64,000 nt of DNA, from the NCBI RefSeq assembly GCF_058153355.1, contig NZ_CM177019.1. The stretch is one strand, 5' to 3'. Positions 20,007-24,690 of the stretch are shown in pieces (position 1 is the stretch's first letter; each line of letters starts with the position of its first letter). A program made the translations under genes and the position numbers. Below the pieces are notes generated by a model. It saw only the letters and a list, made by a program, of their open reading frames with translations, made no database searches and was not told where the DNA came from.

Positions 20007-20897
20007 ATGATGTTTAAGCAATACCTGCAAGTAACGAAACCAGGCATCATCTTTGGCAACCTGATCTCGGTGATTGGGGGATTCCTGCTGGCCTCAAAGG
20101 GCAGCATTGATTATCCCCTGTTTATCTACACGCTGGTTGGGGTGTCACTGGTTGTGGCGTCGGGTTGTGTGTTTAACAACTACATCGACAGGGATATCGA
20201 CAGAAAGATGGAAAGGACGAAGAATCGGGTGCTGGTTAAGGGCCTGATCTCTCCTGCTGTCTCGCTGGTGTACGCCACCTTGCTGGGTATTGCTGGCTTT
20301 ATGCTGCTGTGGTTTGGCGCGAATCCGCTGGCCTGCTGGCTGGGGGTGATGGGCTTTGTGGTTTATGTCGGCGTCTACAGCCTGTACATGAAACGCCACT
20401 CGGTCTACGGCACGTTGATTGGTTCGCTCTCCGGCGCAGCGCCGCCGGTGATTGGCTACTGTGCAGTGACAGGCGAGTTCGATAGCGGCGCAGCAATCCT
20501 GTTGGCTATCTTCAGCCTGTGGCAGATGCCTCACTCTTATGCCATCGCCATTTTCCGCTTTAAGGATTATCAGGCGGCAAACATTCCGGTACTGCCGGTG
20601 GTGAAAGGCATTTCGGTAGCGAAAAACCACATCACGCTGTATATCATCGCCTTTGCTGTTGCCACGCTGATGCTCTCTCTTGGCGGTTACGCTGGGTATA
20701 AATATCTGGTGGTCGCCGCGGCGGTTAGCGTCTGGTGGTTAGGTATGGCGCTGCGTGGTTATAAAGTTGCTGATGATCGAATCTGGGCACGCAAGCTGTT
20801 CGGCTTCTCGATCATCGCCATCACTGCCCTCTCGGTAATGATGTCCGTTGATTTTATGGTGCCGGACTCGCATACGCTGCTGGCTGCTGTGTGGTAA
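20007..20897 (+). CDS. cyoE: protohaem IX farnesyltransferase (haem O synthase)
   Basis: ORF 19962-20897; conserved start [18 protein letters not shown]; UbiA-family motif [18 protein letters not shown]. Confidence 0.95.
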
Positions 20898-20911
20898 CAC
20901 AACCTCTCTAT

Positions 20912-20938
20912 AAAAAAGGTGCTACGGCACCTTTTTTA
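20912..20938 (+). terminator. Rho-independent terminator of cyoE / cyoABCDE operon
   Basis: GGTGC-tacg-GCACC hairpin (20918-20931) followed by TTTTTT, 15 nt after cyoE stop. Confidence 0.8.
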
Positions 20939-20952
20939 TTGTCTGAGAACAG

Positions 20953-20977
20953 AGATACGGCTAATAGCCGTATCTCT
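20953..20977. promoter_or_regulatory. perfect 11-bp inverted repeat (operator candidate 1) abutting the -35 of the toxin-antitoxin promoter
   Basis: GAGATACGGCT-AAT-AGCCGTATCTC, perfect palindrome. Confidence 0.6.
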
Positions 20978-21005
20978 TGACAGAGTGAGTATATGCACAT
21001 AAATT
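20977..21005 (+). promoter_or_regulatory. candidate sigma70 promoter of the antitoxin-toxin operon
   Basis: -35 TTGACA (20977-20982), 17-bp spacer, -10 TAAATT (21000-21005). Confidence 0.5.
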
Positions 21006-21010
21006 AATCA

Positions 21011-21027
21011 TACGGTTGATAGCCGTA
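21011..21027. promoter_or_regulatory. second inverted repeat (operator candidate 2) just downstream of the -10
   Basis: TACGGTTGATAGCCGTA shares the TACGG...AGCCGTA half-sites of operator candidate 1. Confidence 0.55.
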
Positions 21028-21081
21028 TTATGCATGAGATCGACTCCCTACGATTTCATTCAGTTAATCAAAGAGGTCATA

Positions 21082-21393
21082 ATGCCTGGAAAAACAGTCG
21101 CTCTACCCGATATCGATAAAACGCTGAAAAATGCGCGGGTTGAACTCAAAACCAGTCCCGACGCCAAAAACAAACTTCGTGAAGCTGCGCAAGCCGTTGG
21201 GGTAGATTTAAGCGCTTTTATTTTGAGCGCAGCTATGGAACGCGCCGAAAGTGTGCTTGATAACCAACGTCGCCGTGAGCTTTCGAATCAAAGCTGGGAA
21301 CTGATGAACCAACTCATCGCTGAACCTGCTCAACCGACGCTCGCCCTCAAGGCGTTAATGAAAAGGAAAAACAGCGATGGTCGACAAGCATGA
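21082..21393 (+). CDS. DUF1778/ribbon-helix-helix type II antitoxin (TacA/AtaR-like), 103 aa
   Basis: ORF 21016-21393 trimmed to ATG 21082, which follows SD AAAGAGG (21071-21077); small protein with the SAFIL...A..AE.VL pattern typical of DUF1778 antitoxins; 17-nt overlap with downstream GNAT gene. Confidence 0.75.
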   Translation: MPGKTVALPDIDKTLKNARVELKTSPDAKNKLREAAQAVGVDLSAFILSAAMERAESVLDNQRRRELSNQSWELMNQLIAEPAQPTLALKALMKRKNSDGRQA

Positions 21394-21919
21394 AGAGATT
21401 ACTCTGCCCATAGTCCTCTCCTGTAATTATCAGTCTGATATTACTTATCCTGGGCAAAAACAGTTTGATTGCGGTAACCCTGTTATCGATAAATTTGTAC
21501 GCGCATCGCTAAAGAAAAGTGTGCGTAATAGCGACTGTGCTGCTAAAGCACTTATTGACAGACAAAGTGGTGAACTGATTGGCATCTGTACTTTTACGGC
21601 ATATTCGCTGGAAAAACAACGCGTTTCTGGCGTCCTTCAGGGTTCACAACCTTCAGAGATTGGTGTTGTCAGATTAGTCATGTTAGGGGTAGCGCGGAAA
21701 TATCAAAAGCGGGGCTTTGGTCAGGACCTACTATGTGATTTTTTTGAACATGTAAAAATAATTCACCGGGCATTACCAATTAAAGGGGTTTATCTTGATG
21801 CTGACCCTGCCGCCATTAACTTTTATACTCGTCTCGGCTTTGTTCAGCTTTCAGCGAGGCCCAATGTTTTCGGTGCTGTACCGATGTTTTTAGCGATTCA
21901 GCATATTCTCGCGGCTTAG
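21377..21919 (+). CDS. GNAT-family acetyltransferase toxin (TacT/AtaT/KacT-like), 180 aa
   Basis: N-terminal FDCG motif, acetyl-CoA binding RKYQKRGFGQ (Q/R-x-x-G-x-G), C-terminal FYTRLGF with conserved Tyr; translationally coupled to the upstream antitoxin. Confidence 0.8.
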   Translation: MVDKHEEITLPIVLSCNYQSDITYPGQKQFDCGNPVIDKFVRASLKKSVRNSDCAAKALIDRQSGELIGICTFTAYSLEKQRVSGVLQGSQPSEIGVVRLVMLGVARKYQKRGFGQDLLCDFFEHVKIIHRALPIKGVYLDADPAAINFYTRLGFVQLSARPNVFGAVPMFLAIQHILAA

Positions 21920-22909
21920 ATTATTATCGCCTCCGGCCATGGCAAGTTTTGCCTCAGCCGGGGACTGAGCAGCGTTACCACTTTTGTTCAATTGCCCCGC
22001 TTTCATCAGGTCCACATCCTTGCCTTTAATGGTTGCCGTTGCGGCAACGATTGTGGTCCTTATTGCTGCACAAGATTTTCGTTCAAATTCCGGTTTATAA
22101 AGAATAAGCAACGAATTACTGGTAAATGAATCAAGCCGGTAATCTGTAAAGTTAATATCCAGTCGGTTTAAGCCGAAAGGTGCAAAGCCGACCGTTTGAA
22201 TAGTTTCCTTACCTGACGGACTCTTGATGTTGTACGTAACACGAAGATTGGCCACTTCGCCTAATTTATTGGTTTTGGCAAAGAGGCTATCCATACAGGA
22301 AAAACCTTTATCTAAAAAATTATCCCGCATTCCAGAACGGGTAATCGTGATCACAGGTAACGTATCGTCAACCGTTTTTCTGTCAATCATATCTTTTCGA
22401 CAGGCGGCCATAAAGTCTTCCGGACCAGCATAAATGTGAACACCCTTATCAAGATATTCTTTCGCTTTACTACAATCCACCTCGACATACTGACCATTGG
22501 CGTACATCATGCCCAACCTGGACCATGCTAAATTCACACCGCGTTGCGTAGCCTGATTAAATAACGTATACGCTTTGGCGTAATCCACTCGCACCTGTTC
22601 ACCTTCGTAGTAGATATTCCCCAGCGCTAACGGAGCTTCTTCATCACCTTGTTTAGCGGCTAACTCGAACCATTTAATGGCTTCCTGAACGTTGGGTTTG
22701 GTATCGTAGCGGGGCTGATAATATTCCCAGCCTAACAGGCTTTGCGCGTCGACATCCCCCGACTCAGCCATTTTATGCAGTGTCCTTATCACATCGGGGG
22801 CAGGCTTTTCACTGTATATGCTGTCATACAATTCATGCGCTTTCTCGCTTGCCAGTGAACCTTGTGAGGCAATTAATAAAATAGCCAATAAACTCTTTTT
22901 ATTTAACAT
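21890..22909 (-). CDS. secreted Sel1-repeat (TPR-like) protein with ~170-aa C-terminal domain of unknown function
   Basis: 339 aa; signal peptide MLNKKSLLAILLIASQGSLA; Sel1-like repeats (AQSLLGWEYY..., EAIKWFELAAKQGDEEAPLALGNIYYEG, AKAYTLFNQATQRGVNLAWSRLGMMYANG); 3' end overlaps GNAT gene 3' end by 30 bp. Confidence 0.7.
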   Translation of the reverse strand: MLNKKSLLAILLIASQGSLASEKAHELYDSIYSEKPAPDVIRTLHKMAESGDVDAQSLLGWEYYQPRYDTKPNVQEAIKWFELAAKQGDEEAPLALGNIYYEGEQVRVDYAKAYTLFNQATQRGVNLAWSRLGMMYANGQYVEVDCSKAKEYLDKGVHIYAGPEDFMAACRKDMIDRKTVDDTLPVITITRSGMRDNFLDKGFSCMDSLFAKTNKLGEVANLRVTYNIKSPSGKETIQTVGFAPFGLNRLDINFTDYRLDSFTSNSLLILYKPEFERKSCAAIRTTIVAATATIKGKDVDLMKAGQLNKSGNAAQSPAEAKLAMAGGDNNLSRENMLNR

Positions 22910-23325
22910 AAATAACTTTTATGCATCCATCACTATATTTTTCAATATACCTAACCACCAAACATCCACTTCATGAATAAATACACAGCCATAACAACCT
23001 CAGGTAATAAGTAAACATTTAAGCTGAAGCAGAATAACCAGCACCTCCAACACCTCTATTTATTACGATAAAATAACATCATCCTTTAATAAAAAATCAC
23101 ACGCTCATCAACAAATCCGAAAATAATATCATTCGTGGCAGGATAAAATCAGGTGAGCTTTTCATTTGTTATATTTAACACACAAAGTATTAATGGCAAG
23201 AATACGAGAGAAGCGCATGCCTGACGTAAAAATCACGCTCTTATGTAATATTTACTCATTAACACTCTGTTTACCCAACATGCGCTCCGCACTACACTAT
23301 GTGGGCAATTTTTTAAGAGGTGGTA

Positions 23326-24690
23326 ATGAACGATTATAAAATGACGCCAGGTGAGCGGCGCGCGACCTGGGGTTTAGGGACCGTATTTTCATTGCGCATG
23401 CTGGGCATGTTTATGGTACTGCCGGTTCTAACTACGTACGGTATGGCACTGCAAGGTGCCAGTGAAGCATTAATCGGTATTGCCATTGGTATTTATGGCC
23501 TGACTCAGGCCGTTTTTCAGATTCCGTTTGGCCTGCTCTCAGACCGTATTGGTCGCAAACCATTAATTGTCGGCGGGCTGGCGGTGTTTGCTGCCGGTAG
23601 TGTTATCGCTGCGCTTTCCGACTCAATCTGGGGAATTATTCTGGGCCGGGCGTTACAAGGTTCTGGAGCGATTGCCGCTGCCGTTATGGCGCTACTTTCT
23701 GATCTCACGCGCGAACAAAACCGCACCAACGCGATGGCGTTTATCGGCGTGAGTTTTGGTATTACCTTCGCCATTGCGATGGTACTTGGCCCTATCATCA
23801 CTCACAAACTTGGACTGCACGCGCTGTTCTGGATGATCGCTATTCTGGCAACAACCGGCATTGCGTTGACCATTTGGGTGGTGCCCAACAGCAGCACGCA
23901 CGTACTTAATCGTGAGTCCGGGATGGTGAAAGGCAGTTTCAGCAAAGTGCTGGCAGAACCGCGACTGCTGAAACTCAACTTCGGCATTATGTGTCTGCAC
24001 ATGCTGCTGATGTCGACGTTTGTTGCCCTGCCCGGACAGTTGGCTGATGCGGGGTTCCCGGCGGCTGAGCACTGGAAGGTCTATCTGGCGACGATGTTAA
24101 TCGCCTTTGGCTCGGTTGTGCCTTTCATTATCTACGCGGAAGTTAAGCGCAAAATGAAGCAAGTCTTTGTCTTCTGCGTCGGGCTGATCGTGGTTGCGGA
24201 AATTGTGTTGTGGAACGCACAAACGCAGTTCTGGCAACTGGTGGTCGGCGTGCAGCTATTCTTTGTGGCGTTTAATTTGATGGAAGCCCTCCTCCCCTCG
24301 CTTATCAGTAAAGAGTCGCCAGCCGGTTACAAAGGCACGGCGATGGGCGTTTACTCCACCAGCCAGTTTCTTGGTGTGGCCATTGGCGGTTCGCTGGGTG
24401 GCTGGATTGACGGCATGTTTGACGGTCAGGGCGTATTTCTCGCTGGCGCAATGCTGGCCGCAGTGTGGCTGGCAGTCGCCAGCACCATGAAAGAACCGCC
24501 GTATGTCAGCAGTTTGCGCATTGAAATCCCATCGGACATTGCCGCAAACGAGACGTTAAAAGTGCGTTTGCTGGAAACTGCGGGTGTCAAAGAAGTGTTG
24601 ATTGCAGAAGAAGAACATTCGGCTTACGTGAAAATCGACAGCAAAGTGACGAATCGCTTTGAAGTTGAACAGGCAATTCGTCAGGCATAA
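23326..24690 (+). CDS. yajR: MFS transporter YajR
   Basis: ORF 23320-24690; conserved start MNDYKMTPGERRATWGLG; 12-TM MFS with soluble C-terminal domain. Confidence 0.93.
   Translation: MNDYKMTPGERRATWGLGTVFSLRMLGMFMVLPVLTTYGMALQGASEALIGIAIGIYGLTQAVFQIPFGLLSDRIGRKPLIVGGLAVFAAGSVIAALSDSIWGIILGRALQGSGAIAAAVMALLSDLTREQNRTNAMAFIGVSFGITFAIAMVLGPIITHKLGLHALFWMIAILATTGIALTIWVVPNSSTHVLNRESGMVKGSFSKVLAEPRLLKLNFGIMCLHMLLMSTFVALPGQLADAGFPAAEHWKVYLATMLIAFGSVVPFIIYAEVKRKMKQVFVFCVGLIVVAEIVLWNAQTQFWQLVVGVQLFFVAFNLMEALLPSLISKESPAGYKGTAMGVYSTSQFLGVAIGGSLGGWIDGMFDGQGVFLAGAMLAAVWLAVASTMKEPPYVSSLRIEIPSDIAANETLKVRLLETAGVKEVLIAEEEHSAYVKIDSKVTNRFEVEQAIRQA

Follow-up and report, generated by a model that had tools for sequence, protein, structure and literature searches.

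Directly after the terminator of cyoE in the 64-kb stretch of DNA analysed here (hereafter the window), two related palindromes bracket a promoter in front of a toxin–antitoxin gene pair, which raises the question of which protein reads them and how they control the genes downstream. The first-pass annotation had seen in this arrangement the geometry expected for autorepression by an RHH antitoxin complex, a view that is supported by the identity of the genes, by published reporter data, by the operator complex of the homologous KacAT system, and by a phylogenetic footprint. From the sequence and from these homologous systems we infer that the two palindromes, IR1 and IR2, are very probably bound by the ItaR–ItaT complex as the two operators of an autorepressed itaRT promoter. 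The original proposal of repression by an RHH complex accordingly held, with the refinements that the toxin is needed as co-repressor and that in some lineages just one of the two sites is retained.

The genes behind the promoter are the following:

21082..21393, plus strand: itaR, RHH (DUF1778/TacA1) antitoxin of 103 aa, assigned by Pfam and PDB matches.
21377..21919, plus strand: itaT, GNAT toxin acetylating aminoacyl-tRNA, co-repressor; overlaps itaR by 17 nt.

ItaR matches Pfam PF08681 (TacA1; 1.3e-17, residues 19–96) as well as DNA-bound KacA (PDB 5ZGN chain A, E = 3.5e-11), and ItaT matches E. coli ItaT (PDB 7BYY, E = 1.3e-115) with 175 of 180 residues identical (~97 %). A TacA1 antitoxin ORF together with a 7BYY-matching toxin ORF therefore identifies the itaR–itaT module, which was initially characterised in E. 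coli HS, and a DUF1778/TacA1 RHH domain with an overlapping GNAT toxin gene downstream marks it as a type II toxin–antitoxin system of the GNAT–RHH kind; NCBIfam offered no useful family name for either protein. Between 21016 and 21081, the choice of start codon differs among database entries, some of which (for example P0001, 125 aa, from E. coli IAI39) begin the protein at a TTG located within IR2. We favour the 103-aa form from the ATG at 21082, because this codon is preceded by AGAGG and because of the orthologue alignment. The β-strand of ItaR, KNARVELKTS, is invariant in 17 orthologues whose overall identity is 56–69 %, and its residues R19, E21, and K23 align with R8, D10, and R12 of KacA: the CpG-reading arginine is thus kept as R19, while E21 for D10 and K23 for R12 are conservative replacements.

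E. coli HS carries the same module at the same cyoE–yajR locus, with DNA identities to the window of 98 % for itaR, 97 % for itaT, and 95 % for the control region. When 172 bp upstream of itaRT from this strain were cloned before galK, they conferred ~40-fold promoter activity, which was silenced to background in vivo by ItaR together with either ItaT or a catalytically dead ItaT and was unaffected by ItaR alone (Wilcox et al. 2018, NAR 46:7873). Neither an operator nor a palindrome, inverted repeat, or footprint is mentioned in that paper, the ItaT structure paper (Zhang et al. 2020, NAR 48:7532) names no operator, palindrome, or start site, and the itaRT operator is named nowhere in the searchable open literature, a full-text search of which returned no further open paper on itaRT.

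In the window, the palindromes and the promoter (...cagAGAGATACGGCTAATAGCCGTATCTCTTGACAgagtgagtatatgcacaTAAATTaatcATACGGTTGATAGCCGTATtatg...) are laid out as follows:

20951..20977, no strand assigned: IR1, predicted upstream operator; perfect 27-bp palindrome of 12 bp + 3 bp + 12 bp.
20977..21005, plus strand: itaRT sigma-70 promoter; −35 TTGACA at 20977–20982, 17-nt spacer, −10 TAAATT at 21000–21005.
21010..21028, no strand assigned: IR2, predicted downstream operator; ATACGGTTGATAGCCGTAT, with one arm mismatch.

Repeat and promoter scans confirmed that the palindromes are real, IR1 being perfect and IR2 having a core of the same type, and that they flank a TTGACA-17-TAAATT promoter. The arms of IR1, AGAGATACGGCTA (20951–20963) and TAGCCGTATCTCT (20965–20977), are 100 % complementary according to the repeat finder. 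The inverted repeat had initially been described as a perfect one of 11 bp starting at 20953; its perfection stands, whereas the arms are actually 12 bp long, IR1 covers 20951–20977, and even the arm as then written out begins at 20952. The cores of the two sites, TACGGCT-AAT-AGCCGTA (IR1, 20956–20972) and TACGGTT-GAT-AGCCGTA (IR2, 21011–21027), form part of 19-nt copies that are 89 % identical and lie 55 bp apart centre to centre (repeat finder), and a distance of 11 bp separates the two CpG steps of IR1 (TACGGCTAATAGCCGTA) as well as those of IR2. Within the 64 kb, exact matches to the degenerate core TACGGYTNNNARCCGTA occur only at IR1 and IR2, against a chance expectation of ~0.002 per window by our own arithmetic.

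The order of elements noted at the outset, with a −35 beginning where IR1 ends and with a 17-bp spacer, a TAAATT, and a second palindrome following, agrees with these coordinates. IR1 overlaps the −35 by a single base, its final T (20977) being the first T of TTGACA, and the promoter itself agrees with the consensus at 10 of 12 positions and is the top promoter-like site found by the promoter scan in 20700–22100. IR2 begins 5 bp past the −10 and covers the predicted transcription start near 21012, 7 nt after the −10. Counted from this predicted start, IR1 would extend from about −61 to −35 and IR2 from about −2 to +17. Sites adjoining the −35 and following the −10 by 5 bp occupy positions expected of operators in an autoregulated type II toxin–antitoxin promoter, and this placement is kept with the module. 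Allelic variation spares the same features: HS carries two substitutions in IR1 (AACCGTATG versus AGCCGTATC in the window), which makes the window allele the more perfect palindrome, and across the HS and IAI39 alleles every CpG is intact and all IR1 changes lie outside the TACGG/CCGTA core. One of these IR1 changes, G to A, stays within the R position of the motif, and the sole core change affects IR2 of IAI39, the first base of which is C instead of T.

The surroundings of the module support the view that this control region belongs to it and not to cyoE. Two flanking features provide the context:

20910..20939, plus strand: cyoE intrinsic terminator hairpin, outside the module; 13-bp perfect stem ATAAAAAAGGTGC/GCACCTTTTTTAT.
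21890..22909, minus strand: gene for a Sel1/TPR-repeat protein, third gene of the islet, convergent with itaT.

The terminator hairpin, which folds as RNA with −17.2 kcal/mol (z = −8.2), is also present in K-12; the K-12 and O157 genomes match query positions 1–81 only, that is, 20860–20940. Aligned with K-12, the left junction of an islet falls directly after the T-run of the terminator at ~20940 and the right junction ~75 bp before yajR, so that itaR, itaT, and the convergent Sel1/TPR gene make up an islet of ~2.3 kb (~20941 to ~23245). Since shared K-12 sequence stops at ~20940, the palindromes lie inside the inserted islet and are not part of cyoE. The initial placement of the palindromes just past the cyoE terminator was correct, and the idea of a control region carried by the module itself is supported, for the motif is also kept with orthologous modules in other genomic contexts. 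At the cyoE–yajR locus, itaRT is present in 1,368 of 5,426 complete E. coli genomes, and the remaining ones, including K-12 and O157:H7, match only up to window position 20940. Comparison of 20600–23700 with IAI39 gave DNA identities of 100 % for itaR, 99.4 % for itaT, 95.6 % for the cyoE flank, 93 % for yajR, ~89 % for the TPR gene, and ~73 % for the spacer at 22910–23245; such a mosaic islet suggests, at the level of sequence, that diverged Escherichia lineages have recently exchanged itaRT. The Sel1/TPR protein has a signal-peptide-like N-terminus (MLNKKSLLAILLIASQGSLA), and its ORF overlaps the 3' end of itaT by 30 nt in the window allele but not in HS.

How an RHH antitoxin may read such sites is illustrated by KacAT of Klebsiella pneumoniae, which likewise pairs a DUF1778 RHH antitoxin with a GNAT toxin. 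In the crystal structure with the operator duplex AAATGTACGGTTATTAACCGTACATGA (PDB 5ZGN), one KacA4KacT2 hexamer places two RHH dimers on the two arms of a single ~27-bp palindrome; the KacA R8 pair reads the CpG guanines in each arm, D10 the adjacent cytosines, and R12 the G before TACGG. KacA alone binds the operator weakly, and excess toxin releases the KacAT repressor from it (Qian et al. 2019, NAR 47:7690). Set beside the 5ZGN DNA and the natural loci of the KacA clade, both IR1 and IR2 have the KacAT-type operator layout and lie within the module's own promoter: the core TACGG-N7-CCGTA is the same and the CpG steps are 11 bp apart in all. The TACGG/AGCCGTA elements that had been taken for shared half-sites are indeed common to both palindromes; by analogy with KacAT, however, each palindrome as a whole probably accommodates two ItaR RHH dimers of one hexamer, rather than being a pair of monomer half-sites.

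The two clades also differ in instructive ways. The KacAT palindrome lies at the start site, like IR2, and there is none on the −35 side. Correspondingly, KacA/AtaR-clade plasmid loci (L027–L031) contain one palindrome, GTACGG-N7-CCGTAC, directly after the −10, and the natural kacAT site reads TGTACGGAAAATAACCGTACA; as this differs from the 5ZGN duplex, the crystal DNA had been symmetrised. Whereas KacA needs the G before TACGG and the inner CT/AG pair is not conserved, the ItaR clade keeps TACGGCT/AGCCGTA. At the protein level, R8/D10/R12 of KacA face R19/E21/K23 of ItaR, and with two of the three base-reading residues changed (D10 to E, R12 to K), the contacts may differ. KacA alone binds weakly, whereas ItaR alone does not repress in vivo. 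AtaRT of E. coli O157:H7, whose antitoxin shares 73 % identity with KacA (Qian et al. 2019, NAR 47:7690), is described in summaries of the primary work (Jurenas et al. 2019, Nat Chem Biol; Yashiro et al. 2019, Structure) as a heterohexameric repressor on a palindromic operator that is derepressed by excess toxin. For TacAT of Salmonella enterica, two distinct sites lie in the ~75 bp ahead of the start codon, and it is the complex, not the antitoxin alone, that binds them (VanDrisse et al. 2017, mBio 8:e00708-17); its regulation involves acetylation of TacA, whereas no such acetylation of ItaR was detected by Wilcox et al. 2018. About 600 plasmids carry KacA/AtaR-clade modules, and judging by the common TACGG core, cross-recognition between co-resident GNAT–RHH modules is conceivable.

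A phylogenetic footprint ties the motif to the module itself. Scanning one genome per species with the ItaR alignment yielded 23 loci from other species, distributed over Pseudocitrobacter, Edaphovirga, Phytobacter, Rahnella, Buttiauxella, Trabulsiella, Chimaeribacter, Serratia, Kluyvera, Superficieibacter, Xenorhabdus, and one Pseudomonas. All 23 have an ItaT orthologue directly downstream and the operator motif (≤2 mismatches) upstream of itaR, and in the 70.9 kb of remaining sequence of these loci the motif does not occur with ≤1 mismatch. The full layout, in which IR1 is followed after 4–5 bp by TTGACn, 17 bp, TAnAnT, a further 4–10 bp, and IR2, is found in 12 loci with centre-to-centre spacings of 54–60 bp, mostly 57, although the promoter spacer and the outer flanks vary freely among them. 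An equivalent of IR1 lies 4–5 bp before TTGACn/TTGCnn in 21 of the 23 loci. Among 38 distinct sites compared, no variation was seen at the C, G, G and C, C, G positions or at the inner T and A.

Ten further loci have a single-site layout. Nine Xenorhabdus loci (L014, L017–L023, L025) possess the −35-side site only, without IR2, and Superficieibacter (L024, 1390–1450) the start-side site only, as TTGACG-17-TACTCT-5-site without IR1; two sites are therefore not obligatory. In the place of IR2, Xenorhabdus has CAGTACAATA, which may be a remnant half-site, and in Superficieibacter a perfect palindrome of 35 bp encloses the start-side site. In the Pseudomonas locus no promoter stands out clearly. 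The operator–promoter unit lies 215–290 bp before the start of itaR in Edaphovirga, Rahnella rivi, and Serratia sp. PL17 (L005, L007, L013; ~1210–1500), a distance that implies leaders of ~200 nt.

A mechanism modelled on KacAT would fit this anatomy. One ItaR RHH dimer would insert its β-sheet at each CpG, the two CpGs of a site, 11 bp apart, lying on one face of the helix; by homology, the R19 pair would read the two guanines, and E21 and K23 the neighbouring bases. ItaT would bridge two ItaR dimers into a KacAT-like A4T2 hexamer of high affinity, and an excess of toxin would lead to derepression as in KacAT. A complex on IR1 would block the −35 and the UP-element region, and one on IR2 open-complex formation or promoter escape; between two ~27-bp footprints, precisely the 29 bp spanning −35 to −10 would stay uncovered. 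As the footprints would bracket these elements, either complex should exclude RNA polymerase. The toxin requirement of this model agrees with the reporter result of Wilcox et al. 2018 and with TacAT. A spacing of 54–60 bp does not amount to integral helical turns, which argues against a phased loop between the sites, and it seems to be set by promoter geometry.

Beyond the 17-bp core, the flanks of IR1 are symmetric lineage by lineage (window 20945–20983; L009, L016, L018, and others), with sequences that differ among lineages: agaga/tctct in the window, atcgga/tccgat in Rahnella (L009), aaatgg/ccattt in Kluyvera, and atatg/catat in Xenorhabdus. Complementary flank pairs at IR1 number 69 versus 43.2 ± 5.2 on permutation, the sites being phylogenetically non-independent, and at IR2 there is no excess (36 versus 35.7). 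One explanation would be that the N-terminal arm of ItaR, which is variable, reads the flanks; others are that a hairpin is selected for, or that quasi-palindromes are corrected by template switching. Comparison by eye of the ItaR N-terminal arm with the IR1 flank sequences, among few independent lineages, revealed no obvious rule. A joint reading, which we regard as speculative and on the whole rather unlikely, would combine these features: the distant clades of ItaR and KacA/AtaR (~35 % identical) share the TACGG-N7-CCGTA core, the ItaR clade would have added the −35-side operator, and the IR1 flanks together with the inner CT/AG pair would form a specificity code, perhaps read by the ItaR N-terminal arm, that insulates co-resident GNAT–RHH modules or deliberately couples them; or else IR1 would double as a hairpin insulator of the mobile module.

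Among the alternatives, the one to be taken seriously is an additional or different role of IR1. That only IR2 is a working operator, as in KacAT and AtaRT, and that IR1 is otherwise used, for example as a hairpin insulating the module from upstream read-through, appears quite improbable. KacA/AtaR-clade modules with their single palindrome just after the −10 do lend themselves to this idea, as do the 12-bp hairpin that IR1 RNA would form (−19 kcal/mol, z = −5.4) and the restriction of the symmetric flanks to IR1, as if a stem had been selected. What is conserved at IR1, however, is its core sequence and not symmetry alone, and this core is of the very type found in IR2; moreover, IR1 keeps a fixed distance of 4–5 bp from the −35, it is the only site retained by the Xenorhabdus modules, and TacAT, too, has two protein-bound sites. 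The absence of a U-tract after IR1 likewise speaks against such a use. An intrinsic terminator in particular was considered and rejected: what comes after the stable hairpin is TTGACAGAG and not a U-tract, and IR1 is absent from the terminator scan.

The start of IR1 only ~10 bp inside the left islet junction could point to sites of a host factor or to a recombination scar of the islet instead of ItaR sites, which we nevertheless hold to be highly improbable, considering that the motif travels with itaRT across genera and unrelated genomic contexts, that its core equals the operator of the homologous KacA repressor, and that no Rfam family reaches threshold here (20800–21200). The islet scar or recombination site was discarded as a candidate also because the motif has no copy at the right islet junction and moves with the module in other genera. 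Chance resemblance, for which only the shortness of the motif could be adduced, is negligible given two exact matches 55 bp apart with none elsewhere in 64 kb, and given that every one of the 23 orthologous loci has the motif while their 71 kb of flanking sequence lacks it. Two operators read by the ItaR–ItaT complex remain by far the preferred explanation for IR1 and IR2.

Already known were the itaRT system and the complex-dependent repression of the 172-bp fragment, and the type of operator was familiar from KacAT and AtaRT; no new kind of system is revealed here. New are a base-level operator assignment for itaRT, as predicted from sequence, and the indication that a pair of such sites is typical of the ItaR clade. 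For a module whose autoregulation was shown only on a 172-bp fragment, this provides testable operator and promoter coordinates at base level. It further suggests that a distant clade follows the operator grammar of the KacAT crystal structure, with either one site or two, and it makes operator number, the sensing of the toxin:antitoxin ratio, and cross-talk between modules addressable via two CpG steps per site.
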